From the NCBI GenBank assembly GCA_963771175.1, contig CAVYSY010000038.1, forward strand, positions 256,001-320,000: a stretch of 64,000 bases of DNA, read 5' to 3'. The notes beneath the pieces were generated by a model, which made no database searches, was not told the DNA's origin, and worked only from the letters and a program-made list of their open reading frames with translations. The DNA comes from an uncultured delta proteobacterium. GTDB taxonomy: Bacteria > Myxococcota > Myxococcia > Myxococcales > Myxococcaceae. Positions 9,397 through 36,847 of the stretch are shown here, piece by piece (position 1 is the stretch's first letter; each line of letters starts with the position of its first letter). Position numbers and translations under genes: made by a program.

Positions 9397-9802
9397 GCCT
9401 TCACCTCGCTCGCGTCCGGCCCGGCCCGGGCGCCTCATGGGCGCCTCGACGCTCCTCCAGTCATACCCTCGGAGCAAACACGAGACCCGGCCGTGCCCGT
9501 GCCCGGCCACGCGTCGTCCCCACCAGCGCGCAGGACGGCTTCGGTGCTCGTCCGCCCGGCGAAGTAGCCGGCGCACTTCACGGCCGAGCAGTCCCGAGGC
9601 CGGTCCCATTCACGGGGCCGGCCTTTTCGTTTTCCAGAAGCACGGGCATTTGACGGAGGCACCGCATGTTCCGGAAGACGCGTGGTGACAATCCAACGCT
9701 CAGGCGCGTTTCCCCTTTCATGACGCGGAGCGGCACCTGCCTATCGTCGGCGCCCTCTCCCCTGCCGTTGTCAATCAACCCAAATCCACCGTCGAGGTCC
9801 GA

Positions 9803-11331
<1,529 letters not shown>

Positions 11332-13643: not shown

Positions 13644-14903
13644 CTACCTCGCCGCGGGCAACCGCACCTCGAAGGTGCTGCCCTTGCGCTGCTCGGGCAC
13701 CAGCGCCACCGTGCCGCCGTGCCGCTCCACCAGCCGCCGGCACAGCGCCAGGCCCAGCCCCGTCCCGTTCGCCTTCCCCGTCACGAAGAGGTCGAAGAGC
13801 CGCTCGCGCACCTCCGGCGCCACTCCCGGCCCGTCGTCCTCCACGCGCACCCGCACCGCGTTCCCGTCCGACTCGGCCGCCAACCGCACCTCGCCCGCCC
13901 CCTGCGCCTGCGCCGCGTTCTGCAGGAGGTTGGCGAACACCTGTCTCAGCCGTCCCGCGTCCCCCTCCACCAGCGGCAGCTCCGGGAAGCTCCGCCGCAC
14001 CTTCACCGCCGGGAACGCCACCTCCGTGGCCCTCGCCGCCTCCTCCAGCACCTCGGACAAGGAAATCCGCTGCGCGGCCAGGGGTCGGTCCGCGCTCAGG
14101 TCCAGCAGGTCCTCCGTCAGCCGGCGCAGCCGCTCCACCTCGCCCAGCACGTCCTCCAGCGCCTCCTTGTCCCGCTCGGAGAGCTTCATCCCGCTGCGCT
14201 CGCGCATCAGTTCCACCGTGCCCCGGATGACGCCCAGCGGGTTGCGGATTTCGTGCGCGGCCATGGCCGCCATCTTCGTCAGTGCCTCGCCCCGGGCCGC
14301 TCGTGCCGCGGCCTCGCGCCGGGCCCGCTCGTCCCGCAGCCACCGCGCCGCCACCAGCGCGAGCGCCAGTGCACCCACCGCCGACAGCGCCACTCCGCCC
14401 CACAGCGCGCGCCGCAGCGCATCGCGAGCGCTGGAGAAGGCCCGCCCCGCCTCCATCACCAACACCGAGTCCACCCGCCCCTCGGCCCCGCGCACCGGAA
14501 AGTAACCCACCGACACCTGGAGCTCGCCCAGCGAGTAGCCCGGCCCCACTCGCGTCTCTCCCGCGAGCGCGGACTCCACTCCCGCCGGGTCCGTGCGCAG
14601 CAGGTCCACCCGACGTCTCGCCGGCCCGGTGGCGTCCGCGGGCACCGCCAGTTTCCGGTCCACCACGTACACCCCATCCAGCGCGTTGGCCCGCATCAGC
14701 GCCTCCAGCCGCTCGGACGTGGCCGGCGTGTCCCTCAACAGCAGCGCCGCGGATTCACCCGCGCCCCGCAGCCGCGCGTCCAGCGACTGCTCCAGCGCCG
14801 CGCTCCCCGCGCGATAGAGGGCCAGCGTGGCCGCGAGCGCCCCCACCAGTCCGAGGGTCGCCAGGCCCAGCGGGCCCACTGCGCGCGAGCCGGGCCGCGA
14901 CAT
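13644..14903 (-). CDS. Sensor histidine kinase
   Basis: Two TM segments; AHEIRNPL H-box, NLLQNA, DDGPG, GTGLGL. Confidence 0.95.
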   Translation of the reverse strand: MSRPGSRAVGPLGLATLGLVGALAATLALYRAGSAALEQSLDARLRGAGESAALLLRDTPATSERLEALMRANALDGVYVVDRKLAVPADATGPARRRVDLLRTDPAGVESALAGETRVGPGYSLGELQVSVGYFPVRGAEGRVDSVLVMEAGRAFSSARDALRRALWGGVALSAVGALALALVAARWLRDERARREAAARAARGEALTKMAAMAAHEIRNPLGVIRGTVELMRERSGMKLSERDKEALEDVLGEVERLRRLTEDLLDLSADRPLAAQRISLSEVLEEAARATEVAFPAVKVRRSFPELPLVEGDAGRLRQVFANLLQNAAQAQGAGEVRLAAESDGNAVRVRVEDDGPGVAPEVRERLFDLFVTGKANGTGLGLALCRRLVERHGGTVALVPEQRKGSTFEVRLPAAR

Positions 14904-16279
14904 CAGTACAGCCCCCGGGACCACACCAGTCCCAGCCCTCCGACGAAGCGACCGTAGGAGAGCTCGGCGATGTTGGAGGTCGCCCCCCGCCAGCCCACCG
15001 AGGCCAGGAGGCTCCAGTTCCTCGACACGTCCCACTCCAACGCCGCGCCGGCATCGAGGTAGTCGTCCTCGCGGCGCGCCCCCAGAGGGTTGTCGAAGTT
15101 CTCGTAGTCGCGCAGGGTGTAGCTCACATCACCCACGAAGCGCAGCCCGGGACGCAGGCGCACGCGCAGCCCGGCGCGCGGTCCGTGCTCGAGGTAGCCG
15201 AGCGCCAGGTCGTACGCCCGGAGGTGGCCGCCGGACCAGCCCGCCGAGAGCGTGAGGAGCTCGGCGGGGCTCCATTCCGCATCCAGCCGGGCCGTGTTCC
15301 TCCAACCGTCATAGCCGGTGTACGCGCTGGCCAGGAAGTCCTCGCGGCGCACGTCCCACGAGCCGTCCAGCACCACCGGGCCCACGGGCGCGCGCGCGGC
15401 CACCTGCAGCCGGAGGGCTCGCAGGTAGGGCGCCCCTCCGAGCGACAGGTAGTCGAAGCCGTACTCCGCGGTGAGCTGCGCCGCCGAGCCCAGGTGCGCC
15501 CAGCCCAGCGTGCCCCCGGCCCCGGCCAGGTCGAAGTCGTGGAAGCTCAGGTGGCCCCGGTACTGCCCGGAGACGCGCGCATAGGGGCCGCGCTGACCCC
15601 AGGGGCGCAGGCGCAGCTCGGCGAGTCCCAGGCCCACTCCATCCGCGTTCCCCGACTGCAGCCGCGTGCCGTCCGGCGCGAGGTCCACGTTGGAGTCGTA
15701 CTCGCTCCCCAGCCGCACCGAGAGCGTCACCCGCCCCTCCCGCCCGGCTCGCAGGCGCAGCTCCTCGGCGCGCCTCGCCAGCCCCGCGTCCGACGAGGCC
15801 GCCGCCGTGGTGAAGAACGCGCTGGCCTCGCTCGCGCGCCCCTCGCGCAGTGCCATCAGCCCAAGGAAGAAGGAGGCGGTGTCCGCCAGCTCCGGCTCGG
15901 CGAGGACCTGACGGAAGGAGGCCGCCGCGGCCTCGTCCTCGCCCCGCTCGAAGAGGGAGAGCCCGGAGAGCAGCGCCGCCGCCGCGTCGTCCTCGCGGGG
16001 CGCCGTGTTCTCTCGCGGAGTGGCCGGGGACTTGGAAGCAACGGGCTTCTCGCGGCAGAGCGCCTTCAGGGCCGCTCGCGCCCGGGCGTTGCCCGGTTCC
16101 CTCCGCAGTACCTCGCGCCAGGCGACGAGGGCCGTCTCCCTGTCTCCAGCGGCCTGCTCGGCCTCGGCTACCTCCACGTAGGGAGCGGCGGCGGCCGGGT
16201 CCGGCGTGGCGTCCGGCGTCACGGGACCGCAGAGGCCAGACTCGGCGAGCAGCGCGGCCACGAGCAGGCCCGCACTCAC
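14903..16279 (-). CDS. TPR protein with C-terminal outer-membrane beta-barrel
   Basis: GTG start overlapping upstream stop; TPR-like helices then EYDSNV and alternating beta strands. Confidence 0.7.
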   Translation of the reverse strand: MSAGLLVAALLAESGLCGPVTPDATPDPAAAAPYVEVAEAEQAAGDRETALVAWREVLRREPGNARARAALKALCREKPVASKSPATPRENTAPREDDAAAALLSGLSLFERGEDEAAAASFRQVLAEPELADTASFFLGLMALREGRASEASAFFTTAAASSDAGLARRAEELRLRAGREGRVTLSVRLGSEYDSNVDLAPDGTRLQSGNADGVGLGLAELRLRPWGQRGPYARVSGQYRGHLSFHDFDLAGAGGTLGWAHLGSAAQLTAEYGFDYLSLGGAPYLRALRLQVAARAPVGPVVLDGSWDVRREDFLASAYTGYDGWRNTARLDAEWSPAELLTLSAGWSGGHLRAYDLALGYLEHGPRAGLRVRLRPGLRFVGDVSYTLRDYENFDNPLGARREDDYLDAGAALEWDVSRNWSLLASVGWRGATSNIAELSYGRFVGGLGLVWSRGLY

Positions 16280-16908
16280 GGAGTCCCTCCGCCGACGAGG
16301 GGCGCGGGCAGCTCGGACAGCGCGCTCAACCCGGCGCGGGCCTCGGCGAGCCGGTAGCGGTCCTCGCGCTTCTGGGCCAGCCGCACCGCTTCCTCCAGGT
16401 AGCGCGCGGCGAGCAGCGGGCGCCTGGCCGAGCGGGCCTGGGTGGCGCGCCCGTGGTACCAGTCGATGGAGGACGGCACCGGCGCCGAGCGGAAGAGGGC
16501 GCTGATGTCCTCGCGCAGCTTGCGCACCTGCTCGCCAATGCGCGGCCCCGAGGCATCCCCCACCGCGTCGAGAAGCGTGTCCGCGCACAGGTACAGCTTC
16601 GCCTCGTAGCAGGCGAGCGCGTGGTAGTAGTCGAGCAGTGCGTCGCGCGCGTCCGGGGCGCTCTTCTGGGCGGCGGCGAAGGCCTCCAGCGCCTCCTCGG
16701 AGCGGCCGAGCTTCACCAGCGACGCGGCGATGTACCAGTCCGCCTCCCCCCCCGAGCCCAGACGCTGGGCCACCTTGAATTCCACCAGGGCGTTGGCGAA
16801 ATGGCCCTCGCGGAAGTGGCGAGCGCCCTGGAGCAGGTGGGGCGTGGAATCCGGCGGAGTGGCCGCCGTGAGTCCAAGCAGGGCGAGGCACAACGCGAGG
16901 CGCTTCAC
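16276..16908 (-). CDS. Secreted TPR-like protein
   Basis: Signal peptide (V)KRLALCLALLGLTAA; helical repeats (GARHFREGHFANALVEF). Confidence 0.7.
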   Translation of the reverse strand: MKRLALCLALLGLTAATPPDSTPHLLQGARHFREGHFANALVEFKVAQRLGSGGEADWYIAASLVKLGRSEEALEAFAAAQKSAPDARDALLDYYHALACYEAKLYLCADTLLDAVGDASGPRIGEQVRKLREDISALFRSAPVPSSIDWYHGRATQARSARRPLLAARYLEEAVRLAQKREDRYRLAEARAGLSALSELPAPLVGGGTP

Positions 16909-16921
16909 GCGAGGCCTTCTA

Positions 16922-17399
16922 TCACGGGTGGCGGAAGGGTGCCGGCTCCGACGCTCGCCCGTTCCCCGGCTTGTCGGGCTTGGGCTCCTTGCTCTTCCGC
17001 ACCGTCTCGGCTCGAGAGCGGCCCGCTGCGTCCTGCGCATCCGAGCCCACTCCCGCCGCTCCCAACGCCGCCGAGCGAGCGGCCTTGATGCTCGCCCCAG
17101 ACGAGGCCCGCTCGCTCGCGTTCGCGGCGCGCTCCGAGGCCTCACGACGGGACTTCTCGGCGGCCTCACCGCGGGTACGGGTCGCGTCGCGACGAGCACC
17201 ACCCGCGGCGGTCTCCCGGGCCGACTCGGCCACCGGGGACTCCGCCTCGGGCAGGCGGGGGCGCTGCTCCGGGAGCGTGGCCTGCACCTCGAGCGCCTGG
17301 AGGATGGCGGCCCGAGGCTCCTCACGGCGCGGCGACTCCTCGGCGGCGGCCCCGAGGGCCCACAGCGAGAATGGCGAGGAGGATGAGGGAACCGCGCAT
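16922..17399 (-). CDS. Secreted low-complexity Ala/Arg/Glu-rich protein (frameshift near 17355)
   Basis: GGAGG RBS, signal peptide MRGSLILLAILAV, continuing in ORF 16922..17287. Confidence 0.55.
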
Positions 17400-17446
17400 G
17401 ACTGCCTCCACGACGCGCCCGGGGGAGGGCTCCAACGAGGAGCCTA

Positions 17447-17460
17447 GCATTCCTCGTGCC
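17447..17460 (-). promoter_or_regulatory. Sigma-54 (-24/-12) promoter
   Basis: aGGCACgaggaatGCt: GG-N10-GC with GGCAC, about 50 bp upstream of the 17399 start. Confidence 0.65.
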
Positions 17461-17521
17461 TGACGCTGGTTCCTCGGGAGCGGGGGTGTCGGGTAGCGGC
17501 GCATGCCCCAACCGGGACACC

Positions 17522-17545
17522 CGGGTGTACCGGCTGGTACACCCG
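17522..17545. promoter_or_regulatory. Palindrome, candidate enhancer-binding-protein site
   Basis: cgggtgtacc-ggct-ggtacacccg, perfect 10-bp arms, 60-85 bp upstream of the sigma-54 motif; could also act as terminator of the 17578 gene. Confidence 0.5.
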
Positions 17546-17577
17546 TAGGGGCAAGGCCGTCGGGCACCGCGACAGGA

Positions 17578-18195
17578 CTAGGAGCTTCGCTTCGCGATGG
17601 GTTCGGCGGCCTTCAGCCGCTCCACGGTCGCCGCGTACACGGGGCCCAGCGAGTCGAAGTAGTCGCTCCAGCTCGATGTCTTGCTTTTCGACAGGTAGAG
17701 GTCCAGCGTGGGCAGCGCCGCTTCACGGTCATGGAGCACTTGCCGTAGCAGCTCGAGCTGCACATGGGGCGTGAGCGCGAAGGCATTGACCTCGTGCCCG
17801 ACCGTGATGAAGGTGCGCTCGACGGCCTCGTACTCCGCCTGCGAGCGCGAGAGGACGCCGACATGGCGCTCGCTCGAGGGTGGACCGCCCTCGCCGTAGC
17901 GATGCCCCTCGCAGCTCGTATAGGTGATGAGGCCGTGGTGCCGGGCGACGACGACGACGAGGTCGCGCACGCCCTCCTCGACGAATTGCTCGAACTGGGG
18001 GTGGAGGGGAGGCAGGATGCTCGCCGGCAGCTCACCGGCCCCACCGGCGTTGTTGATGTTGCCGTAGTCCGATTTGCGCAAGGAATACTCGACCCGGTTG
18101 GCCATGGCCCGGGGATCGTCCCACTGCTCCATGAGGTCGCGGGCCCCGTCCAAACGGTTGACGAGCCGCCTCCCTCCTCTATCGAGCTCTTTCAT
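17578..18195 (-). CDS. Hypothetical protein with TYTSCEGH motif
   Basis: Clean ORF, GGAGA RBS before ATG 18195, own candidate promoter. Confidence 0.7.
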   Translation of the reverse strand: MKELDRGGRRLVNRLDGARDLMEQWDDPRAMANRVEYSLRKSDYGNINNAGGAGELPASILPPLHPQFEQFVEEGVRDLVVVVARHHGLITYTSCEGHRYGEGGPPSSERHVGVLSRSQAEYEAVERTFITVGHEVNAFALTPHVQLELLRQVLHDREAALPTLDLYLSKSKTSSWSDYFDSLGPVYAATVERLKAAEPIAKRSS

Positions 18196-18268
18196 CGTTG
18201 TCTCCGCCAAGGCTCACGAACCGGCGCATACCAGTCGAGTGCTCACCTTACCGTGGCACAATCTCGAT

Positions 18269-18297
18269 TGTATAATCACTCTCAACAGCAGAAGCAA
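18269..18297 (-). promoter_or_regulatory. Sigma-70-like promoter
   Basis: TTGCTT-N17-TATACA in an AT-rich patch, overlapping the palindrome acaatc-tc-gattgt (18258-18271). Confidence 0.45.
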
Positions 18298-18351
18298 TAC
18301 AGCCGGTGCGGTGTCGAGCGAAGACATCCGTGAGGAAGGACGCCTCCGAAT

Positions 18352-19009
18352 TCAGGGCCGTCGAGCCAATTCCTCGAGCGCTTCGGCAACCACACCTTCC
18401 TCGATGGCCTCCATGCTCCCGGCACCGGTGATGTGGCGATGGTGCTTCGTCACCCGGAAGCCCCAACGCTGCTCGGAGGTGGGCCCGAACAACCCGACCG
18501 ACGGCAGCCGAAAGAAGTCCGCGGCGTGCAGCATGCAGGAGTCCACTCCGAGGAATGCGTCACAAATCCCCACCAGCGCCATGGCCGGCGGAATCGCAAT
18601 CCCCGAGGCGGCCAGAACCTGCTTCCCCCGGGGGATGGACTCCAGTCCGCGATCCGCCAGGTCCAGGACGAGCACGAGCCACTCAGGGTGGCGTGTGAGA
18701 AAGGCATTCAGCACACGCTTGAAGCTTTCCAACGGCCATTGCTTCGAGGGAGCCGTCTCGGTATGCACCGCGAGCACCCTGCTCCACGACGACGTGTGTT
18801 TGCTTCATCTCCGCGCGCACCGCGCGGACCTCCCGCAGCGGCAGGCCCGAGTAGAAGAGCTGCTCATCTCCCGGGGCGCCCACGACCCTCAGGCGGCCAG
18901 AGTACAGCTCGGAGAGGGCACGCACGGCCGGCAACGCCAGGAGGCGATCTCCGGTGCCGTTGACGTGGAAGACCACGGGCGCACGGGCGTTTCGAAGTGG
19001 GCCGTCCAT
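18352..19009 (-). pseudogene. Glycosyltransferase family 9 (heptosyltransferase-like), frameshifted and apparently internally deleted
   Basis: N-part GTGDRLLALPAVRAL and C-part SKQWP...DAFLGVDSCMLHAA...VGLFGPT..W lie in different frames, joined near 18790; only about 220 codons in total. Confidence 0.7.
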
Positions 19010-19020
19010 GATGCAATGGC

Positions 19021-21460
19021 TCACTCGCTCCTGATGGCGATGATGGGGTCCACGCGCGAGGCCCGGCGCGCGGGCATCCACGTGGCCAGCAGGGCGATGA
19101 TGCCCAGCAGCAGCGCGAGCGAGCCGAAGGTGAGCGGATCCCTCGTGCTCACCCCATAGAGGAGGCTCTCCATGAAGCGCGACAGGCCGAAAGCCCCGGC
19201 GAGCCCGGCGCCCACGCCCAGGGCGGCCAGCAGCGCCCCCTGGCGCATCACCAGCTTCACGACGTCCGAGGGCTGCGCGCCCAGGGCCATCCGGATGCCG
19301 AGCTCTCGCGTGCGCTGGGAGACGGTGTAGGAGATGACGCCGTAGAGGCCCGCGGTGGCGAGCACCAGGGCGATGACGGCGAAGGCTCCCAGCAGCACCA
19401 GGTTCATCCGGCGCGCCACCATGGAGCGCGAGATGATCTCCTCCATGGTGAACACCTCGGCGATGGCCAGCTCCGAGTCCACGGACTTCACCGCCGCCCG
19501 CAGCGCGGAGGCGCCGGCCGTCGAATCCACCGTCGTCCTCACCACCAGGAACACGTCCTGGAGACCAAAGGGGTTGGCCCCGGCCTGGTTGTAGGGCAGG
19601 TCGATCTCCGGGACAGGCTTCCGGTCCAACCCACCCTGGCGCACGTCGCCCACCACGCCGATGACGGTGGCGGACTGCCTCATGAACGTCAGCCGCCGGC
19701 CCACCGCTTCGCCCTGGCCGAAGTGCCGCTGGGCCAACGCCTGGTTGATGATGACCACGAGCTCCCCCTGGCCATCCTGCTCGGTGAATTCGCGCCCGGC
19801 CAGCAAGGGAATCCCCATGGCCTTGATGAGGCCCGGACTCAGGGCGCGGAACTCCGCCATTGGATCCTTCCCCGGTTCGGGCTCCGGCTCCCCCTCGACG
19901 GTGTAGCTGGTGGTGAGGGACCCTGGATGGATGGGGAGCAGCGAGGTGAGCCCCACGGACTGCACGCCGGGCTGAGAGCGCAACTGCTCCAGGACGGGCT
20001 GGAAGACGCGCTGGGGGGCCTCCGCGAGCGGGTACTTGTAGGTGGGCACCGACATGCGGGCGGTGAGCACACCGCGCGCGTCGAAGCCCGGCGCCTCGTT
20101 GAGCAGGGTGATGAAGCCACGCATCATCAGCCCGGCGCCCACCAGGAGGATGAGCGACAGGGCCAGCTCACCCACCACGAGCCCACCACGGAAGCGGTGT
20201 TGCGCCCGCGACGACGAGGCCTTCGTCCCGGACCCGCCGAGGCTGGCGCGCAGGTCGGTGCGAGTGACCTGCAGCGCCGGGAAGAGCCCGAAGAGCACCG
20301 AGCTGCCCGCGGCCACCAGCAGCAGCAGGCCGAAGACGTTGCCCCGCAGCGAGATGTCGCCGAGCAGCGGCAACGAGCGCGACACCAGGCCCTCCAGCGC
20401 ACTCACGCCCCAGGCCGCCAGGAGCGCTCCGAGCACCGCGCCCGCCAGCGACAGCACCAGGCTCTCCACGAGCATCTGCCGGATGAGGCGGGACCGGCTC
20501 GCGCCAAGCGCAGCCGGACGGCCATCTCCTTGCGGCGCGCGGCCCCCTGGGCGAGCAGGAGGTTGGCCACGTTGGCACAGGCGATGAGCAGCACGAGCAG
20601 CACCGTGCCCTGGAGGATGAGCAGCACGGGCCGCACCTTCCCCATCACCGTCTCCGTGAGCGGCACGGCCGTGGCGCTGCGCCCGGCCAGGTCGTTCGGG
20701 TAGGCCTCCTGCAGACGGGTGACGAGCTGGCGCAGCTCGGTGTTGGTGGCCTCGAGGCTCACCCCGGACTTGAGCCGGCCGATGACGTTCAGGAAGCGCG
20801 AGCCCCGGGCCTCGGCGTTCGGGCCCGTGACGGAGAGGGGGATGAACAGGTCCATCTGCGTCTGCGTGCCCGCGGGGAACTGGACCGCGGTCGGCAGCAC
20901 GCCGATGACCGTGTAGGGCAGCCCATCCAGCGTCAGGCTCTGGCCGAGCAGCGCGGGGTTCTCGCCGAAGCGCCGCTTCCAAAGCCCCTCGCTCACCACC
21001 ACCACGGGCGCGCTGCCGGGGGCATCCTCTCCCGGGGAGAAGCCACGGCCGAGCCGCGGCTCCACGCCGAGCACCTGGAAGAGATTGGCGGAGACCTCGG
21101 CGACGCGCAGCCGCTCGGTGCCCTCGCTCCGCCCAGGTTACGGCTCTTGAGGGTGTAGGTGGCGAGGCCTTCGAGGCTCTGGAGCTGCTGCGCCCAGTCC
21201 CGGACGTTGGGCCAGGAGGCGGACTCGCGCAGGTTGGGATCTCTCTGGGGCACCGTCTCGAAGAGGCGCACGAGCCGCTCCGGCTCCGCGTACGGCAGCG
21301 GGCGCAGGAGCGTGGCGTCCACCACGCTGAAGATGGCCGCGTTGGCGCCGATTCCCAGGGCCAGGCACAGCACCGCCACCGTGGTGAAGCCCGGGCTCTT
21401 GCCCAGCCTGCGCAACGCGAAGCGGACATCCCGGCTCAGGTCATCCATCCAGCTCGTCAT
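19021..21460 (-). CDS. ABC transporter permease, duplicated MacB/FtsX (ADOP-like); frameshifts near 21130 and 20515
   Basis: [63 protein letters not shown]. Confidence 0.9.
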
Positions 21461-21550
21461 TCCACGCACCCCTTGGGCAGGACCCACCATGGCCTCGGTC
21501 CTCTCCGGACATGCCGGGCAGCTCGATGGAGCAAGGCCTTCAGCAGCCTA

Positions 21551-21895
21551 CTACGTGTTGCGCTCCAGCTCCGCGCAGGTCTCGGCCGTGCCGGCGCACG
21601 GCACGGTGTCGAGCTGCCTGAGGCGCTCCAGCTCCGCGCAGGCCTCGGGCGTGCCGGCGCACGGCTCGGTGGTGCCGAGCTGCTTGTTGCGCTCCAGCTC
21701 CGCGCAGGCCTCGGGCGTGCCAGCGCACGGCTCGGTGGTGCCGAGCTGCTTGTTGCGCTCCAGCTCCGCGCAGGCCTCGGGCGTGCCGGCGCACGGCTCG
21801 GTGGTGGACTCCGACGTCACGAGCTCCTCCGGACCACAGCCCGTGGCGAGGACCGTCAATCCCAGGGTGGCAAGCAGCAGGCACGGCTTGAGCAT
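21551..21895 (-). CDS. Small lipoprotein with four Cx6C repeats
   Basis: GGAGAG RBS, lipobox LATG-C, repeats of TTEPCAGTPEACAELERNKQLG; joined to the ABC ORF in the track only through a frameshift. Confidence 0.8.
   Translation of the reverse strand: MLKPCLLLATLGLTVLATGCGPEELVTSESTTEPCAGTPEACAELERNKQLGTTEPCAGTPEACAELERNKQLGTTEPCAGTPEACAELERLRQLDTVPCAGTAETCAELERNT
21560..21806 (-). repeat. Coding tandem repeat, 63/66/66-bp period
   Basis: gcgctccagctccgcgcagg begins at 21560, 21623, 21689 and 21755. Confidence 0.9.
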
Positions 21896-21978
21896 GTGCA
21901 TCTCTCCGGTGAGGGTACGAAGGGTCTGAAGCACTATCATCCAGCAATTCAGGGAAAATTGGAATGAAAGGGGGAGTC

Positions 21979-24106
<2,128 letters not shown>

Positions 24107-24127
24107 GGTGAGCACGTGCGGCGAAGT

Positions 24128-24658
24128 CTACTCGCGGAGGAGATGGACGAGGTACTTCCGGGGGGGCGTCCACACCTGCACCTTGAGCGGCAACGGCGCG
24201 GAAGGGGCCGGGAGGGCGGGGTCGGGGGCGAGCAACACCTGGAGGCAGGACGCCTGCTCCGGGGGCGAGGAGGCCTGCAAGAAGGCCCGGGACTCGCGGC
24301 TGCACGGGCCGGTGGAGAGCTTGGAGATCACCCCCCGCGAGCGCTCCGCCGAGCCCGCGAAGCGGAACTCGAGCGTATCGCCGGGACGCAGGTGCTCGGC
24401 GGCCGTCGGCTCCAGGGAGAGCTCGAGCCCCTGACCCCGCGCGGGGGCGTCTTCCACCAGGGCGACGAACATCGGCTGGAAGTCGAGCCGTGACAGCGCG
24501 AAGCCAAGGAGCGCCATGAGGAGCAGGGGGACCAAGGTCACCAGCCGCAGCGACAGCGGACGCAGCAGGCTGATCTCCCCGAGGTGACGCACTCGGCGGT
24601 GGTTGAGCGCCTCGTACCTGAAGAGAGGCCGGCCTTGAACGGGGGGCTCGGGTTTCAT
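24128..24658 (-). CDS. Short HlyD/CvaA-like secretion accessory protein
   Basis: N-terminal LFRYEAL...LGEISL.RP plus TM segment typical of CvaA-type adaptors; directly upstream of the PCAT. Confidence 0.65.
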   Translation of the reverse strand: MKPEPPVQGRPLFRYEALNHRRVRHLGEISLLRPLSLRLVTLVPLLLMALLGFALSRLDFQPMFVALVEDAPARGQGLELSLEPTAAEHLRPGDTLEFRFAGSAERSRGVISKLSTGPCSRESRAFLQASSPPEQASCLQVLLAPDPALPAPSAPLPLKVQVWTPPRKYLVHLLRE

Positions 24659-24700
24659 GATCGTCACCAATCCGTGGGCAAGCGCCGGCCCCCCGACGGC

Positions 24701-25855
24701 TCAGGCACCCTGTGCCGTCAGCCGGGCACGCAGAGGACGGGAGAGGGCAAGGCCCAGCTCGCTCAGCCCCACCTCGCTCTCGATGGGGACGCGCAGTTGT
24801 TCCATGTACGCGACAATCGTGCTCTGGCGGCTGGAGATCTCCTTCTGAAGCCCCATGGCGCGGAACTTCTCGAAGGCGATGAGCGCGTTGCCGAAGGCAT
24901 GATAGCCGATGAGGATCCGGTCGAGGGGGCGCTCGCACTTCTTGAGGGGCGAGTAATGCGGCCTGGCCTCGGGCGTCACGAACGAACCGACCCAGCTCGC
25001 CATGTGGAAGTACTGGTGCGAGCACTCGTGAATCATCATCTCCGCCGTCTCCGTGGGCGTGGCCGGCACGCACAGGTCGATGCCGCCGAAGCGGCGCGGC
25101 GAGGAGCCGCTGGCGATCATGTTCCAGTCCGGACGGCGGATGGGAGTGATCTCCTTGAGCAGACAGAGGACCCAGGCGCGATACTCCGGCATGGCCCGGC
25201 CCATCAGCTCCAGGGCCTCCTCGAACTGGGCGACCGCTCCCTGATTCACGACCGCCGCGGGCTGGCTGAGCTCATCCAGAAAGGTCGTGTGCCACTCGGC
25301 ACCCACCACGCGGATGGTGGGCTGACCGTCGACCCGGACGAACGAGGACTCCGTGCCGGCTTCAGCCCACACGGGGCTGCCGTTGCGCTGGGCGATGACC
25401 GAGAACGACCGGGGGGCGGTAGCGCCCTCGGCCTGGATCGTCATCCGGTCGGCTCCACCCCGGATGGAGAGACGCGCGGCGGGGACGAGCTGGCCGGCCA
25501 CGAAGAGAGGCGCGTTCGTCTCGACGTCGAGCTCGAGCTCGGAGGTCACTCCCGTCACGTGCGCGCTGAGGGAAATCTGGGCCCGGAGCCAGTTCCAGTC
25601 GCCCTCCGTGAAGGCCTGCTTCGACAGGCCGTTGAAGATGATCGCCACCTCCGGCGTCCAGTAGGCCGTGTTCGCCCCCCGCTGGGCGAGCCGCTGGGCG
25701 ATGTCGGCGAGCCGGGCGTCCTGGCTGTAGCCGTGCTGCTCGGCGAGGCGAATCGCCCGGCGACAGAAGACCCGGAACTGGTTGGTGGCAAGCTCGGCCG
25801 TCAGGGCGGCGTAATCGCCCTCGAAAGGATTGGACAGTCGGTTGAAGATTTCCAT
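24701..25855 (-). CDS. aKG-HExxH-type peptide beta-hydroxylase
   Basis: AEMMIHECSHQYFH and HYSPLKKCERPLDRILIGYHAF motifs; immediately follows the radical SAM gene. Confidence 0.85.
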   Translation of the reverse strand: MEIFNRLSNPFEGDYAALTAELATNQFRVFCRRAIRLAEQHGYSQDARLADIAQRLAQRGANTAYWTPEVAIIFNGLSKQAFTEGDWNWLRAQISLSAHVTGVTSELELDVETNAPLFVAGQLVPAARLSIRGGADRMTIQAEGATAPRSFSVIAQRNGSPVWAEAGTESSFVRVDGQPTIRVVGAEWHTTFLDELSQPAAVVNQGAVAQFEEALELMGRAMPEYRAWVLCLLKEITPIRRPDWNMIASGSSPRRFGGIDLCVPATPTETAEMMIHECSHQYFHMASWVGSFVTPEARPHYSPLKKCERPLDRILIGYHAFGNALIAFEKFRAMGLQKEISSRQSTIVAYMEQLRVPIESEVGLSELGLALSRPLRARLTAQGA

Positions 25856-25859
25856 GGGC

Positions 25860-27170
25860 TCACTCGATGACGGGCAGTTCCATTGAATTGGCTTCGGGAA
25901 TCTGAATCTCGGCGGGAGCCGCGCCCAGGGTCACGGGCCGCAGGAAGTCCCGGGCCCAGAACTCGGGCTTGCGCGAGAGCACCTGCGACAGGCGCTCGAC
26001 GCCGTTCTCCCGCCTGGCCACGATGGCGGCGATCGCGGTGTGGATGGTGTCCAGCGTCTCGCAGAAGACCGAGGGTTGGTCGAAGCCGGACCCCTTCTGA
26101 TAGCGATTGAAGAGCTCTCCGGAGCGGCAGGTCCGGAACCAGTCGCAGCTCGCACACTTCTCGGGGGCCTTGTCGACGGCCCGCACGAGCTGCTGCCACA
26201 TGGGGCTGCCGAGGAACTGCGCGAGGGTGGTGTTGCGGACGTTGGTGTCCGCGTTGAAGAGCGCCTTGTCGAGCGCCATGATGTTGTCATCCATCCCGAG
26301 CTTGCCATCGCCGGAGATGGTGATGATGTGGTGGCGGGTGGAGCGCCTGAAGTCCATCCGCTGGGCGCCGGCGTCCGAGATCATCGCCGACATGATGTCG
26401 GAGAGGAGCTGGATGGTGACCAGCCGGCCGATCTTCTTGGGCGTCGTCTGCCAGTACTTGATGATCTCGGTGAAGTAGGCGACCCACTTGCTCTGGGGCT
26501 TCCAGACATCGCTGTCGTAGCCTTCTCGCGGCAGCAGGATGTTGAAGTTGTCGATGCCGAGATCCTCGACGAAGTGCCGGACGACCTCTTCTCCGCTGTG
26601 ATTGGGATTGGCCACGCAGAGGATGCCCGTGGCGCGGTTGCGCCCGGCACGCACCCCCTCCTGGAGCAAGCGCAGGCCCCTCACCGTGGCCTCGTAGCTC
26701 CCCTTCCCCTTATGATCGGGGCGGGCCGCGTCGTGGATGTGGGGCGGGCCATCCAGGCTCACTCCCGCGGCCACCTGGTGCTCGGCGAAGAGCGAGACCC
26801 ATTCCTGGTCGACTCGCGTCCCGTTCGTCTGGAGCCCGAGGTGGACGTTCGTCACATCCGAGAGCTCTTCGCGGAGGATGCGGCAGATGGCATCGAAGCG
26901 CTTCTTCGGCATCAGCAGGGGCTCGCCACCGTGCAGGCCGATGTAGAGGTGCTGGATGTCCATCTCCTGCACACCGCGGCGTAGGAACGCGGCGACGTCT
27001 CGGATCGTGGCCTCGGAGATCAGGGCGGGACTGCTCTTGTAGAGATCGTTTTCCTGAAAAAAGTAATAACAGTACGGGCACGCCAGGTTGCACCGCTCCG
27101 CTATCTTGAGGACCACGTCCAGACAATTGGCCCACTCTCGAGGTTCTCTGCGCATCCTCGCCTCACTCAT
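25860..27170 (-). CDS. Radical SAM/SPASM peptide maturase, XyeB-like (cyclophane-forming)
   Basis: LKIAERCNLACPYCY, HGGEPLLM.K.RFD, LQTNG, SLDGP, GILCVANP, ISGDGKLGMDD, C-terminal Cx2Cx5Cx21C; matches XyeB/XncB as I recall it. Confidence 0.9.
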   Translation of the reverse strand: MSEARMRREPREWANCLDVVLKIAERCNLACPYCYYFFQENDLYKSSPALISEATIRDVAAFLRRGVQEMDIQHLYIGLHGGEPLLMPKKRFDAICRILREELSDVTNVHLGLQTNGTRVDQEWVSLFAEHQVAAGVSLDGPPHIHDAARPDHKGKGSYEATVRGLRLLQEGVRAGRNRATGILCVANPNHSGEEVVRHFVEDLGIDNFNILLPREGYDSDVWKPQSKWVAYFTEIIKYWQTTPKKIGRLVTIQLLSDIMSAMISDAGAQRMDFRRSTRHHIITISGDGKLGMDDNIMALDKALFNADTNVRNTTLAQFLGSPMWQQLVRAVDKAPEKCASCDWFRTCRSGELFNRYQKGSGFDQPSVFCETLDTIHTAIAAIVARRENGVERLSQVLSRKPEFWARDFLRPVTLGAAPAEIQIPEANSMELPVIE

Positions 27171-27185
27171 CCTGGGTTGCGGTGC

Positions 27186-27232
27186 AAAAAGCGGCCAGCC
27201 GCCGCGGGGTTGAGTCCACTGCGTCTGGCCGC
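27186..27232 (-). terminator. Stem-loop with U-tract between precursor and radical SAM gene
   Basis: gcggccag...ctggccgc stem followed by ttttt on the minus strand. Confidence 0.7.
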
Positions 27233-27248
27233 CTACAGCGAACGACTA

Positions 27249-27464
27249 CTACTCCATCTGCTCCAGCTCCTTACCGAGCGAGCCGTGCGCGGAGCCGTGG
27301 CCGGAGAGGTGGCCCGAGGCGTGCGCGGCGGCGGCGCTCACCGCATCCAGGTGCACGTCCATGAGCTCCACCAGCTCCTGGTCCGCGACGACCAGGTTCT
27401 TCTCCGAGGCGCCATCGAGCTTCGCCTTCAGACGGTCCGCCAGGGTCGAGAGGTTGTTATCCAT
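27249..27464 (-). CDS. RiPP precursor peptide with (HxSx)4 core
   Basis: Strong RBS AAGGAGG; leader ending ELMDVHLDAVSAA; core HAS-G-HLS-G-HGS-A-HGS; first gene before the radical SAM. Confidence 0.88.
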   Translation of the reverse strand: MDNNLSTLADRLKAKLDGASEKNLVVADQELVELMDVHLDAVSAAAAHASGHLSGHGSAHGSLGKELEQME

Positions 27465-27540
27465 ATCGCTTCCTCCTTGGTGTGGCTGTGTGTGGGGGGT
27501 GCGGCGACAACATCACCGTCTCCAAGGTCATCAACGCGAT

Positions 27541-27660
27541 TTCCCTGAAGAAGATGACTAACATTAAACTTTGCAAGTCATTCAGCCTGCTTGTCAAGTG
27601 CCTAAGAAAAAATAACACACACCTGGAATGTCGACTATTCGGCAGTTCCGGCTTGACAAG
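27541..27660 (-). promoter_or_regulatory. AT-rich promoter region of the RiPP operon
   Basis: GG-N10-GC motif aGGCACttgacaaGCa (27589-27602); inverted repeats cttgtcaag/cttgacaag and atgact-N16-agtcat. Confidence 0.45.
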
Positions 27661-27999
27661 TCGCACGGAATGAGGGCTAAGGCTCCGCGCGGCCCACCGC
27701 GTGGCTCCAGGCTTCGGACCCGCCGCCGCCGGTGGATGCGCGGTACGCGAGCAAAGGCAGACACGGCAGCCCAGGGCCGCTTCCCCAGTCTACGTGCGCG
27801 CACTGCGACAGGGAAGGTGCCCCGGCTGGTGCGAGCCTTTGGCGAGGGCCGCTACTCCTGGCTCAGTCCCCAATCTGGACGAAAGTGAGCGCAGCCGCCG
27901 TCGCCGGGCGACACCCCGTCCCAGCAGGCCGACCGCTCCGCTTGCCTCCGGTGGCACCGTGACGCGCCGCGCTCCGGGCGCGCGGGAATCGGGGCAGGC

Positions 28000-28356
28000 T
28001 CAGTCTCGGGGGGGGGCGTCCGAGCCGGGCATCGGAATCTCCTCGCCCCGAAGGCGTCCTCGGAACACCGCGGCCCGCATCAGGAACAGGGTGGTGACCG
28101 GCGCGGTGAGCGCGATGAACACCGCGATGAGCAGCGCATGAAGGTAGAGCTGGCCGCGTTCGTAGGAGACCTGCACCGCCGTCGCGAGCGCGAAGCCCCA
28201 GGTGCCCAGCGTCGCGCCCAGGGTGGGCGCGTGGACGCGCTGGAAGAAGCTCCTCAGGCGCAGCACCCCGAACGAGCCGATCAGCGCCGCCAGCGCCCCC
28301 CCCACCACGAGCACCGCGGTCAGCGCATCCACCCACGGAGGAGTCCACCCGTTCAT
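28000..28356 (-). CDS. phaG: Monovalent cation/H+ antiporter subunit G
   Basis: GSFGVLRL..FFQRVHAPT, TAPV; last gene of the operon. Confidence 0.85.
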   Translation of the reverse strand: MNGWTPPWVDALTAVLVVGGALAALIGSFGVLRLRSFFQRVHAPTLGATLGTWGFALATAVQVSYERGQLYLHALLIAVFIALTAPVTTLFLMRAAVFRGRLRGEEIPMPGSDAPPRD

Positions 28357-28631
28357 TCGATGACCTCCCCGCGCAGGAGGAACTTGGCCATCGCCGTGGA
28401 GCCCACGAACCCGAAGAGGGCGATCAAGAGCGCCGCCTCGAAGTAGGAGCTGCTGCGATAGACGAGCCCCAGCGCGAGGATGACCAGCATCGCGTTCAGG
28501 TACAGGCAGTCGAACGCCAACACGCGGTCCTCCGCCCTGGGCCCGACAATCATCCGTGCCAGCGCCAGCACCATCGCGAGGGCAAGACAGCCAAGGGCGA
28601 ATGCCAGCGACCAGGAGAGCAGAGGGCTCAT
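28353..28631 (-). CDS. phaF: K+/H+ antiporter subunit F
   Basis: GPRAEDRVLAFD...FEAALLIALFGFVGSTAMAKFLLRGEVIE. Confidence 0.9.
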   Translation of the reverse strand: MSPLLSWSLAFALGCLALAMVLALARMIVGPRAEDRVLAFDCLYLNAMLVILALGLVYRSSSYFEAALLIALFGFVGSTAMAKFLLRGEVIE

Positions 28632-29115
28632 TCGAAGATCTCCCTGAGCGGACGCTCGTAGTGATGCTTGATGAAGGTCACCAGGTTCGTCTCGCTCTGA
28701 ATGGCGAGCACGTGCAGCAGCAGGACGCGGTTGTCCGCCGACAACTGCGCCCAGGCGGTGCCCGGCGTGAACGTGACGATCATCGCCAGCACGGCCAATC
28801 CGTTCGGATCCTTCAGCTCGAGCGGAATGAGCACGAAGCCGGAGCGGATGTCGCGCGAGCGCTGGGTGAGAATCGCCCACGCCACCTCGGCGTTCGACCG
28901 CAGCATCTCGAGCACCACCCGGCAGAACAGGCGAGCCAGGAGGAGGGGCCTGCGCAACCGCACGGGGGTGGGCCGAGCCCGACGGTCACCGCGGGCCAGA
29001 ACAGCGCCAGGGCGGCGCCCAGCACCAGCGTCCCCGCGTCCAACGACTGCATGAGGAGAATCCAGAGCAGGAGCAGCGCCACCGAGAGCGCGGGAGAAGG
29101 AAGGAGCCGCCTCAT
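28628..29115 (-). CDS. phaE: Na+/H+ antiporter subunit E (frameshifted)
   Basis: SNAEVA, VTFTPGT, LLLHVL, YERPLREIFE. Confidence 0.85.
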
Positions 29116-30755
29116 CGCCCCGCCTCCGGCGCCGTGGCGGGCGGCCGCACCTCTGCTCCGAGGACCGCGTCGATGTACCCGCGGCGGTCATAGAGGGACT
29201 GGGCCGTTGCGCGCGCGAGCTCCATCGCGGGTCCCGCCGCGAGCGTCAGCACTCCGCACGCGGTGAGGAGCACCACCAGGGACAAGCCCTCCGGCGCCCG
29301 GACCCGAGGGGGCTCGCGCTGCATCTCGGACCAGAAGGTCCGGATTCCCGTCCGCGTGAGCGCGATGAGGGTGAGCAGGCCGCAGCCCAGGAGCACCGCC
29401 GGTGAACAGCCATGCACGGGCGGAGACTGGCCCGCTCCTCCCGGGCGACCCGAGCGCCGCCGACAACATGCCGAGCTTGCCGATGAAGGTGGACAGCGGA
29501 GGCAGGCCGGAGATGAGCAGTGCGCACGCGATGAAGGCCAGGCCCAACAGCGCGGTGGAGGCGGGGAACGGCAGGGCGACGAGCGGCTCCTCCTCGTCGT
29601 CGAGGTTGACCTCCTGCGTCTCGAGCGTCGCGCTCAAGAAGGGCGCCTCGTCCACCACGGTCGCACCCGCACGCCACCGCTCGACGAGGTCGACGAGCAG
29701 GAAGAAGGCGCTGGAGGCCAGCGTGGAGCTCACCAGGTAGAACACCGCGCGGCCGAGGACGGCTTCCTCGCCCAGGCCCAGCGCCGCCAGGAGCGTCCCG
29801 GCGGAGACCATCACCCCCGCCGCCGCCTGGACCGCGAGCCTCTGCGAGGCGATCATCCCCAGGGCCGCGAACACCGCGGAGACCACTCCGAACGCGAGCA
29901 GCCCGTCCGAGCCGAACCCCGCCAGCGGCCCCCCGGCGAACATCAGCGTCCAGAGCCGCACCAGGGCGTAGACGCCGACCTTCGTGAGCACCGCGAACAT
30001 CGCCGCCACCGGCGGAGTCGCCGACGCATAGGCGGGGACGAGCCAGAAGTTGAGCGGCCAGGCCGCCGCCTTGGCCAGGAACGCCACCGCGAGGATGGCC
30101 GCTCCCGCGTCGATGAGGTGCCGGTTGGCCACATTCTCCTGGGACAGGCGCGCGGAGAGCTCCGCCATGTTGAGCGTCCCGGTGACGCCGTAGATCATCG
30201 ACACGCCGATGAGGAAGAGCGACGAGGCGGCGAGGTTCACCGCCACGTAGTGCAGGCCCGCGCGGACCCGCGACTTTCCGGAGCCATGCAGCAACAGGCC
30301 GTACGAGGCGGCGAGGAGAATCTCGAAGAAGACGAAGAGGTTGAAGACGTCCGCCGTCAGGAACGCGCCGGAGAGCCCCATGAGCTGCAGCTGGAAGATG
30401 GGGTGGAAGTGAACGCCCGCGCGGTGCCAGCGCGTGAAGGCGAAGGAGAGCGCGCAGGTGCCCAGGATCCAGGTCAGCACCAACATCCCCGCCGACAGCC
30501 GGTCCACCGCGAGGGCGATCCCGAACGGCGCGGGCCAGTTGCCGGGCAGGTAGGCCACGACGCCGTATTCGTTCACCCACGCCGAGCAGCACCACCGAGA
30601 CGGCGAGTCCCAGGAGCGCGGAGATCATCCCCATCAGCAGCTTCGCCGGGCGGCGCCCCTCGCCCAGGAGGAGCATCACCGCCGCGGTCAGCATCGGCAG
30701 GAGGATGGGCGCCACCATCAGGTGGGGCATCAGGGCCTTGGATGAGCGCGCTCAT
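29112..30755 (-). CDS. phaD: Monovalent cation/H+ antiporter subunit D (several frameshifts)
   Basis: NWPAPFGI, DVFNLFVFFEILLAASYGL, LTKVGVY, GLPPLS. Confidence 0.88.
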
Positions 30756-31091
30756 GGCTCGGTGCCGTCCACGTGATCCGTCCCGGTCATCCCGCGCGAG
30801 GCCAGGATGATGACCAGGAGGAGCGCCGTCATCGCGAAGCTGATGACGATGGCCGTCAGCACGAGCGCCTGCGGCACCGGGTCCGTGTAGTGCGCGAGAT
30901 CCGGCGGGACGCCGTCCACGAGGATGGGCTCCTTGTCGATGGCCAGGCCGCCAATGCTGAAGATGAAGAGGTTGACCGCGTAGGAGAGCAGCGACAGGCC
31001 GACGACCAGCTGGAACGTGCGCGGGCCGCAGCAGCAGCCAGACGCCAGAGCCGGTCAGGATGCCGATAGCGATCGCGAGCACCACCTCCAT
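30752..31091 (-). CDS. phaC: Na+/H+ antiporter subunit C (frameshifted)
   Basis: MEVVLAIAIGILTGSGVWLLL; in another frame YAVNLFIF and DPVPQALVLTAIVISFA. Confidence 0.8.
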
Positions 31092-31094
31092 CAA

Positions 31095-36188: not shown

Positions 36189-36776
36189 CTAGCTCTTGTA
36201 CTTCACCGAGCAGCCGTACGGCTCGGTGGTCGCGGCCGGCACCGGCTTGCCGGAGAGGAGCGCGTCCACCGCCGTCTTCACGTGGTTGGTGATGCCCTCC
36301 TTCTTGTTGCCGCGCGGGTCGTCGTCGATGGCGCCCGCGTAGCGCACCACGCCCTGCTCATCGATGACGTACATGTGCGGCGTCGTCTTGGCGCCGTAGG
36401 ACTTGCCCACCGTGCCGCTCGCGTCCTGGAGCACCGGGTAGGCGAAGCCCTTCTCCTTCTTCCAGGCCGCGGACTTCTCCGGCGCGTTGCTCGAGGTGGA
36501 GTCCACCGCCAGCCACACCACCTTCTTGGCATCGAAGCCCGACAGCGTCTTCTGCATGGTGCCCGCCGTGTAGTGGCGCTGCACGAAGGGGCAGCCGGGG
36601 TTGGTCCACTCCAGCACCACCACCTTGCCCTTGTACTGCGACAGCGAGTGCTCCTTGCCGGCCTCGTCCTTCAGGGTGAAGGCCGGAGCGGGCTTGCCCA
36701 CCTGGGCGGTCTCGGCGGCGAGGGCCACCACGGGCAGCATCACGGCGAGCGCGACAGCGGTGAAGAGAGACTTCAT
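36189..36776 (-). CDS. Secreted thioredoxin-fold redoxin (AhpC/TSA family)
   Basis: Signal peptide; LEWTNPGCPFV, YGAKTTPH, YAGAIDD, PYGCSVKY. Confidence 0.9.
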   Translation of the reverse strand: MKSLFTAVALAVMLPVVALAAETAQVGKPAPAFTLKDEAGKEHSLSQYKGKVVVLEWTNPGCPFVQRHYTAGTMQKTLSGFDAKKVVWLAVDSTSSNAPEKSAAWKKEKGFAYPVLQDASGTVGKSYGAKTTPHMYVIDEQGVVRYAGAIDDDPRGNKKEGITNHVKTAVDALLSGKPVPAATTEPYGCSVKYKS

Positions 36777-36847
36777 TCGGTCAGCTCCTTGTCGAGGGTA
36801 CTGCGGAAAACCCTGTCTCCGCGACCGCTCGGATGCGCGAGAAGCCG

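Follow-up and report, generated by a model that had tools for sequence, protein, structure and literature searches.

Triceptides are ribosomally synthesised peptides with post-translational modifications (RiPPs) whose maturases, the triceptide synthases, join an aromatic carbon of residue 1 to the Cβ of residue 3 (PMC11499958). The class is large and for the most part uncharacterised: about 3900 such pathways have been predicted and ten maturases characterised (PMC11499958). Rings on His are linked from its C2, as shown for HAA, HNR and HTK motifs (PMC11499958), and in minviopeptin, the product of MicA/MicB in Mucilaginibacter inviolabilis, a link from His5-C2 to Ser7-Cβ on an HAS motif was established by HMBC (heteronuclear multiple-bond correlation) nuclear magnetic resonance (NMR) (PMC12912966). 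The stretch considered here is a 64,000-nucleotide segment (the window) of contig CAVYSY010000038.1 from an uncultured myxobacterium, in which nine co-directional minus-strand genes, led by the gene for a precursor peptide with repeated His-x-Ser motifs and the gene for a radical S-adenosylmethionine (SAM) enzyme, span positions 17578-27464. This operon probably directs the biosynthesis of a ribosomally made, stapled peptide of the triceptide class, an uncharacterised variant, and the probability of this reading is put at roughly three in four.

Comparison with the closest described systems reveals both shared and distinct features. The window peptide would have the His-C2/Ser-Cβ ring of minviopeptin, and on the same motif, since the first ring site in the window core is also HAS; the likeness is drawn from the published description of that pathway. 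Minviopeptin contains one His-Ser ring amid YSK and FTK rings, whereas the window precursor has four tandem His-x-Ser sites, and the minviopeptin enzyme is described as PasB-like, with tailoring by an ADP-ribosyltransferase and a double-stranded beta-helix (DSBH) oxygenase, in place of the alpha-ketoglutarate (αKG)-HExxH, SCEGH and glycosyltransferase family 9 (GT9) proteins encoded here (PMC12912966). HaaB (HAA), YhhB (HNR) and HtkB (HTK) form the same His-C2 to X3-Cβ crosslink on H-x-x motifs (PMC11499958); their hosts are Betaproteobacteria and others, whereas in the window X3 is Ser, the motif is repeated four times at a period of 4 and the host is a myxobacterium. The multiple-cyclophane synthase ChlB/ChlBH (PDB 9gm3) is the best solved relative of the radical SAM enzyme, and there too cyclophane synthesis goes together with an αKG-HExxH activity (PMC12636437). 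In ChlBH the two activities are fused, whereas the window encodes separate proteins and its HExxH protein matches the fused 22nu_A only weakly (residues 249-374, E 1e-4); moreover, the Chl motifs are Tyr-based (YDR; PMC11499958), in contrast to the His-based motifs of the window. HxsA-D (TIGR03978 and relatives) is likewise a radical SAM system centred on a repeated His-x-Ser peptide, but employs an HxsB/HxsC pair, whereas the window has one radical SAM enzyme, which scores 71.4 bits against the HxsB model (cut-off 370). The HxsA repeat has a period of 3. The Xye/xenorceptide system has the same layout of a short precursor gene followed by a maturase gene, of the radical SAM/SPASM type in Xye and putatively so in the window, and XyeB is the best curated model for the window enzyme, which nevertheless forms a separate clade, has its own precursor family and falls under the XyeB cut-off of 450 bits. 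The aromatic residues of Xye precursors are of the Trp/Phe types.

The cluster is genuine and represents an uncharacterised variant within a class of RiPPs already known. It is not surprising in kind, its interest to natural-product specialists lying in a clean enzyme-substrate family and in the unnamed accessory domain. No myxobacterial radical SAM triceptide or poly-His-Ser triceptide was found in the literature searched, subscription journals and the supplements of landscape papers aside, in line with the initial annotation of this DNA, in which the combination had been described as unfamiliar from a myxobacterium. The enzyme clade may already be a node in published triceptide networks.

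Precursor family and radical SAM maturase

The precursor gene (27249-27464, minus strand) is an open reading frame (ORF) for a peptide of 71 aa, with a strong ribosome-binding site, AAGGAGGA, 7 nucleotides (nt) ahead of its ATG; the peptide has no match in Pfam or NCBIfam. Its leader ends in LDAVSAA, apparently a double-Gly-type site, and its core, AAHASGHLSGHGSAHGSLGKELEQME, has four H-x-S motifs at a period of 4, such that the C-terminus reads HASG-HLSG-HGSA-HGSL. These motifs lie 78 nt upstream of the radical SAM gene. Comparisons were made across the window region and 84 loci. Precursor orthologues are present in G012, a genome of the same genus with an orthologous locus (L007), in G069, which belongs to another genus of the same family, and in locus L093, with related precursors in 11 further loci. 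A hidden Markov model (HMM) built from five myxobacterial sequences (the window, G012, G069, G198 and G255) and run on all ORFs of these 85 sequences identified 11 precursor ORFs beyond those five at E<=0.011, beside related enzymes, and a second round identified 32 ORFs at E<=1.

The family shares a leader end, ...L(D/E)xHLDx(V/I)(S/A/T)(A/G)(A/G), which, judged by the consensus of such sites, looks like a double-Gly-type site for a C39 peptidase domain. His-x-Ser motifs abound in the cores of the relatives, such as HGSGHTSGHKSGHAS, HHSNHGSNHHS and HGSTHGSHHQS. In an alignment of 13 precursors, H48 and H52 never vary, S50, H56 and S58 are almost invariant, and the period-4 H-x-S pattern of the core is kept even where leaders have diverged to 22-49% identity. 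Across these 13 cores, Ser occupies the +2 position of 39 of 49 His residues, compared with 9.3 ± 2.5 in shuffled cores, none of 2000 shuffles reaching 39; this figure is descriptive and is not a probability, as the sequences are kin. The spacing from one His to the next is 4 in 25 of 36 cases.

The radical SAM peptide maturase (25860-27170, minus strand, 436 aa) was recognised from NCBIfam, Pfam and PDB comparisons. It matches the Pfam Radical_SAM domain with 55.5 bits, and its CX3CX2C motif, CNLACPYC, contains C27, C31 and C34, which are invariant in 24 sequences. Towards the C-terminus, C339, C342, C348 and C370 are also invariant in this set, and C185 is nearly so. The highest NCBIfam scores were obtained with XyeB (TIGR04496, 292.7 bits, the match covering positions 4-364 of 385), YhhB (217.2 bits) and FxsB (199 bits), all of them cyclophane-forming maturases, and these models exceed the anaerobic sulfatase maturase model, anSME (134.1 bits), by 65-158 bits; GrrM/OscB (111.8 bits) and HxsB score lower still. 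Among solved structures, the best match was the triceptide synthase ChlB (1.3e-29), followed by anSME (2.2e-22). By both measures the enzyme stands apart from the sulfatase maturases, a grouping with which had been named in the initial annotation as an outcome that would speak against the pathway. The label 'Xye-like' given there is sound in the broad sense that XyeB is the top model, but the enzyme is not a XyeB equivalog, as its score lies below 450 bits and it belongs to its own clade. XyeB was also the top family (241-343 bits) for 16 of 20 homologues at E<=1e-70, the remaining four having no family at that threshold, and none of the 20 reached a curated cut-off (XyeB 450).

Maximum-likelihood analysis of 48 radical SAM rows puts the window enzyme in three clades nested one inside another, of 4, 7 and 16 rows, all supported at 100/99. 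A His-x-Ser precursor is found directly upstream in 14 of the 16 rows of the largest of these clades, and the sequences of the other two (L098 and L104) do not extend upstream. The sister clade, also of 16 rows, is associated with cores of the GFSLHIQF type. Enzymes of Massilia and Luteibacter, whose cores read YSQ...H(S/N)K, branch off lower down, and the outgroup consists of actinobacterial enzymes. A change of enzyme clade is thus accompanied by a change of core motif, which is what an enzyme and its substrate should show. On sequence grounds, the enzyme is assigned to an unmodelled subfamily of three-residue-cyclophane-forming enzymes with a clade of its own, and the cluster defines a coherent, unmodelled triceptide branch, marked by a separate radical SAM clade and a separate leader family. 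It also offers a ready enzyme-substrate pair for studying contiguous ring formation by one enzyme.

Within the sister clade, loci L130-L168, which derive from soil and peat metagenomes, have HExxH and C39-ATP-binding cassette (ABC) neighbours and GGFSLHIQF-type cores. Those cores comprise F-S-L and H-I-Q sites, preceded by a leader of a different kind, ...DLEGAQDLIDAHIDEV(T/S)GG.

Proposed maturation and export, and competing readings

The αKG-HExxH-type protein (24701-25855, minus strand, 384 aa) matches TIGR04267 with 65.7 bits (cut-off 40) over residues 211-322. Its HExxH motif is HECSHQ, and none of H276, E277 and H280 varies among 7 sequences. Once cyclophanes have been formed, ChlH hydroxylates His and Asp, and other αKG-HExxH enzymes hydroxylate runs of Gln or cleave the backbone oxidatively (PMC12636437). 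By analogy with ChlH, hydroxylation of the ring His would be a first guess for the function of the window protein.

Export is probably carried out by the C39 peptidase/ABC exporter (21979-24115, minus strand), identified from its Pfam matches to Peptidase_C39 (113.5 bits), ABC_membrane (126.9 bits) and ABC_tran (72.6 bits). The C39 catalytic motifs, ECSLAC (Cys), HFVVL (His) and HDPA (Asp), are present at residues 22, 96 and 111, respectively. A 180-aa membrane protein (24128-24670, minus strand) is kept between the HExxH and ABC genes in 5/5 genomic loci and has no Pfam or NCBIfam match even at E<=10. Its structural model (pLDDT 63) predicts one transmembrane (TM) helix and a periplasmic beta-barrel, which aligns with adaptor barrels at Z 6.5-7.5 (EmrA 7.5, MacA 7.0), although unrelated barrels score higher (Sen1 9.4). 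The modelled fold makes a minimal HlyD-like adaptor possible. The earlier description of this protein as a 'short HlyD' is thus plausible, although the barrel is of a generic kind and, of the elements of an adaptor (TM helix, lipoyl domain, alpha-hairpin and beta-barrel), the model has just the helix and the barrel.

In the proposed pathway, the radical SAM enzyme would bind the leader and take a hydrogen from the Cβ of each position-3 Ser, and the carbon radical would attack C2 of the position-1 His imidazole. The result would be up to four consecutive three-residue cyclophanes, with a loss of 2 Da apiece. Up to four consecutive His-Ser cyclophanes are proposed because of the precedents for triceptides and for His-C2 linkage and because the first site is HAS, and the core, being almost wholly tandem His-x-Ser, makes four adjacent imidazole cyclophanes possible. 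The αKG-HExxH enzyme would then beta-hydroxylate ring residues, with His the likeliest target. The C39 domain would cleave after VSAA, and the ABC transporter, acting with the small adaptor-like protein, would export the product. The ADOP permease encoded further downstream may provide a second export step or self-protection, and the SCEGH and GT9 proteins may be optional accessory or tailoring proteins. The initial annotation had already read the precursor as a His-Ser substrate, and this has strong comparative support from the period-4 H-x-S core kept across 13 precursors, with the NMR precedent for the ring type (PMC12912966). Its predictions of a hydroxylated and exported product are consistent, respectively, with membership of TIGR04267 and the ChlH analogy (PMC12636437), and with a C39-ABC gene that has Cys, His and Asp in place.

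Three genes of the cluster are interrupted in the assembly. Relative to locus L007 of G012, the ABC exporter gene has a 1-base insertion near 22216, and the gene for the ADOP-family duplicated FtsX/MacB-type permease (19021-21490, minus strand) has 1-base deletions near 21128 and 20510. The permease gene accordingly occupies three frames, and its match to TIGR03434 (803 positions) is found in three pieces of 116.7, 214.2 and 456.7 bits, covering positions 1-106, 121-310 and 400-803. The gene for the GT9 (heptosyltransferase-like) glycosyltransferase (18352-19081, minus strand; Glyco_transf_9, 42.3 bits) is short of ~302 nt, the part that encodes residues 83-181 in G012. Both G012 and G069 have unbroken ABC and ADOP genes, and the intact GT9 of G012 has 323 aa, its start overlapping the ADOP stop.

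These three interruptions are very probably assembly errors. In contigs of the public runs X1, X2 and X3, the C at 20510 and at 21128 is present and the extra base at 22216 is absent, and the X1 contig has ~302 extra nt at 18781; run X21, from the same sample as X1, gave almost no cover. It is unlikely that the window copy is instead a decaying, non-functional cluster in which ABC, ADOP and GT9 are true pseudogenes. Such decay is suggested by the three single-base frameshifts and the ~302-nt gap in the assembly, and also by the nature of the frameshift-free X1, a different, diverged though close strain (14 of 20 substitutions checked were synonymous) whose contig skips 124 nt of GT9 that both the window and G012 have. 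However, the 64 kb also contain at least three conserved, unrelated genes that are each split into three frames, encoding an aldehyde dehydrogenase (9689-11328, plus strand), MrpA (31534-33834, minus strand) and DsbD (36192-39116, minus strand), and a genome completeness of 81.66% together with split genes is typical of indel-rich assemblies. In addition, the biosynthetic genes for the precursor, radical SAM and HExxH proteins are intact, and the indels of the cluster occur at short runs of a repeated base.

A different role is conceivable for the HExxH protein, namely oxidative trimming of the peptide, for example of an acidic tail after (L/V/I)-G, to leave a C-terminal amide with no side-chain hydroxylation. 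PflC and PosC, which are αKG-HExxH enzymes, cut the backbone to an amide terminus (PMC12636437), and the tails of the precursors past the last ring vary (KELEQME, RELEADQQAY, RQAE) and follow a conserved (L/V/I)-G. Many related precursors, however, have no tail whatever, and the sole HExxH enzyme so far connected with cyclophane peptides acts by hydroxylating His and Asp (PMC12636437), such that trimming is considered improbable here.

Several observations weigh against the proposed pathway as a whole. The chemistry of the cluster is derived from sequence comparison, and the radical SAM enzyme lies under every curated cut-off (XyeB 450, YhhB 445, HxsB (TIGR03978) 370 and anSME (TIGR03942) 349.45), its reaction being extrapolated from relatives at ~30% identity. 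Only the four C-terminal Cys residues are invariant, with C185 nearly so, which leaves the assignment of the auxiliary Fe-S clusters, for which a full SPASM pattern has seven Cys, tentative. The G069 locus is without the lipoprotein, GT9 and SCEGH genes, and the SCEGH family was not found in G069, G198 or G255, which have the core cluster; SCEGH is thus optional and not needed for the core pathway. Since X1 differs from the window strain, its contig is no proof that the window DNA is intact, and public RNA runs matched <=0.10 of sampled words, too little to bear on expression. Abstraction from Ser Cβ also opens anSME chemistry, in which both the starting Cβ hydrogen and the loss of 2 Da on formation of formylglycine are the same. 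Nevertheless, action of the enzyme as a sulfatase maturase on Ser, which would yield a carbonyl such as formylglycine, or else a C-O or C-N linkage, in place of a cyclophane, is very unlikely, for while anSME scores 134.1 bits and is the second-best solved relative, the cyclophane models score far above it by the margins given, an invariant His at motif position 1 would be needless for a Ser-only reaction, and a ring on HAS is documented (PMC12912966).

The SCEGH family

In addition to its core genes, the cluster encodes a protein of 210 aa with a TYTSCEGH motif (SCEGH; 17578-18210, minus strand). The motifs TYTSCEGHxY, ERHVG, SxxGNxN and DLY are invariant in 7 sequences. The protein has no Pfam or NCBIfam match, and none of the 7 members has a Pfam match at E<=10. 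Homologues with 31-39% identity lie inside five other clusters (L095, L097, L098, L100 and L149). A profile search of 1.84 billion representatives yielded 381 members at E<=0.001 (representatives at 50% identity), 317 of them at E<=1e-10; every named member is called 'hypothetical protein', and no precomputed Pfam domain exists for any of them. Ten members lie on contigs equal in length to those of radical SAM homologues, which suggests that the two genes may share these contigs. Among nine long members, three have a radical SAM domain, two of these matching best to YhhB, XyeB and FxsB, while the others comprise one with a YhhC-like 2-oxoglutarate (2OG) oxygenase, one with a methyltransferase (just below the cut-off), one with a NUDIX domain and three with none. 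As judged from neighbourhood and domain fusion, SCEGH is an unnamed protein family that is now tied to cyclophane pathways.

A second locus in G012 (L169, G012:C147, 7966-10232) carries a cassette of SCEGH, a four-site His-x-Ser precursor (...HASGHQSGHLSGHGST...) and HExxH genes, with no radical SAM or ABC/exporter gene within 20 kb. The cassette is followed by a gene for a LysM/CHAP protein.

The structural model of SCEGH has a pLDDT of 75 and a pTM of 0.78. The top four of 48,161 chains compared with it were TYW3-like (2qg3, Z 5.8; 1tlj, 5.8; 2drv, 5.6; 2dvk, 4.8), with alignments of 113-129 residues at a root-mean-square deviation of ~4 and with Z beneath the level considered reliable for the tool. 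Foldseek returned nothing from the PDB at E<=0.001, and the SCEGH profile had no match among PDB sequences at E<=10. Atlas feature scores of 0.85-0.88 serve as leads only. None of 7 members matched Pfam at E<=10, and thus none the TYW3 family PF02676, which also finds nothing in genome G000. For SCEGH, both tailoring of the peptide and handling of the precursor are conceivable roles. It is a rather doubtful suggestion that SCEGH is a new cyclophane-dedicated domain family, acting in TYW3-like, SAM-dependent N-methylation of the ring His imidazoles or in precursor handling, and that the product is a rigid, metal-binding chain of four imidazole cyclophanes. HtkC, which co-purifies with its precursor (PMC11499958), might be a relative of SCEGH, although no motif-bearing protein sequence was present in the supplement.

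Locus structure, distribution and upstream region

Coding lies on the minus strand throughout 17578-27512, with a third-position G+C of 0.79-0.93, and the nine genes abut or nearly so. Gene order, common direction and flanks are as the initial annotation had them. Upstream of the cluster lies an Mrp/Pha antiporter operon (28003-33834) and downstream a tetratricopeptide repeat (TPR)/histidine-kinase block (13647-17577). The G+C content is 0.59-0.70 within the cluster block, compared with 0.72-0.76 in the flanks. The block 17589-27616 has 87-90% nucleotide identity to G012, and the homology stops at the flanks, which are not common to the two genomes; the cluster boundaries proposed earlier are confirmed because G012 has the block but not the flanks. 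Homologues of the flanks (13700-17570 and 27990-31600) lie megabases apart in the same-genus genomes G006 and G015, G004 and G008 of the same genus have a homologue of one flank only, and two complete genomes of the genus have no Mrp/Pha flank. The cluster is thus located in a rearranged, variable region. An empty-site comparison of the flanks in same-genus genomes showed neither insertion site nor donor.

The order precursor, radical SAM, HExxH, small protein and C39-ABC is found again in G012, G069, G198 and G255. Behind the ABC gene, G255 has two additional HExxH copies, giving three HExxH paralogues (L092, 6721-13022). In G198, a PKHD-type 2OG oxygenase gene sits between the precursor and radical SAM genes (L091, 4563-5153). 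From G255 and G198 it is seen that the oxidative tailoring complement differs from cluster to cluster.

The distal genes of the block are less widely shared. The repeat lipoprotein (21551-21901, minus strand, 116 aa) has a lipobox, LATGC, and ~3.8 copies of a 22-aa repeat (EPCAGTPEACAELER...), encoded by a tandem repeat of period 66 at 21556-21806; each 22-aa unit contains the pair of cysteines in CAGTPEAC. Homologues were detected by tblastn only in G012 and L093 (2 of 84 loci). The X2 contig skips 195 nt of the repeat array, and the repeat copy number may vary. An ADOP match is present in 18 of the 84 related loci and adjoins the cluster in G012, G069, G198 and G255, in the last of these in divergent orientation. 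GT9 was detected by tblastn in G012, with weak matches in L008, L118, L119 and L121, and a GT4/GT2 fusion is encoded instead at the GT9 position in G069.

True orthologues (82% identity) occur in 1 of 17 other same-genus genomes searched, and a sample of 401 genomes from the phylum contains 5, G000 among them, with matches at E<=1e-60. Named homologues are found in Haliangium ochraceum (64%), Acanthopleuribacter pedis (51%), Shewanella piezotolerans (48%), a Verrucomicrobia metagenome-assembled genome (45%), Corallococcus interemptor (42%) and Cystobacter fuscus (41%), and are annotated just as radical SAM protein or as arylsulfatase-related. In a scan of contigs for CNLACPYC, the near relatives among the matches listed were L009 (45%) and L008, L010 and L011 (~36%). 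The triceptide branch defined by the cluster is found in myxobacteria, in a Verrucomicrobia genome and in soil metagenomes.

No regulator gene lies within the cluster. A conserved region comprising the upstream sequence and 5' untranslated region of the precursor gene (27465-27616, minus strand) was delimited from an alignment of four loci, in which TTGACAA is invariant and an inverted repeat, GTCATC...GATGAC, is present. Across these loci, conservation of the upstream region (27465-27660) outdoes that of many coding positions, and further upstream CTTGTCAAG is present in 3/3 loci whose DNA extends that far. A scan of the region with the sigma-70 consensus found 0 promoter-like sites, and GGCAC-N8-GC within it resembles a sigma-54 site. 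Between the precursor and radical SAM genes there is a conserved, terminator-like site (27186-27236, minus strand), a stem-loop followed by a T-rich run, which is a candidate attenuator or partial terminator. Its consensus, with no compensatory change, forms 22 pairs at -34.1 kcal/mol and is found in 4/4 loci.

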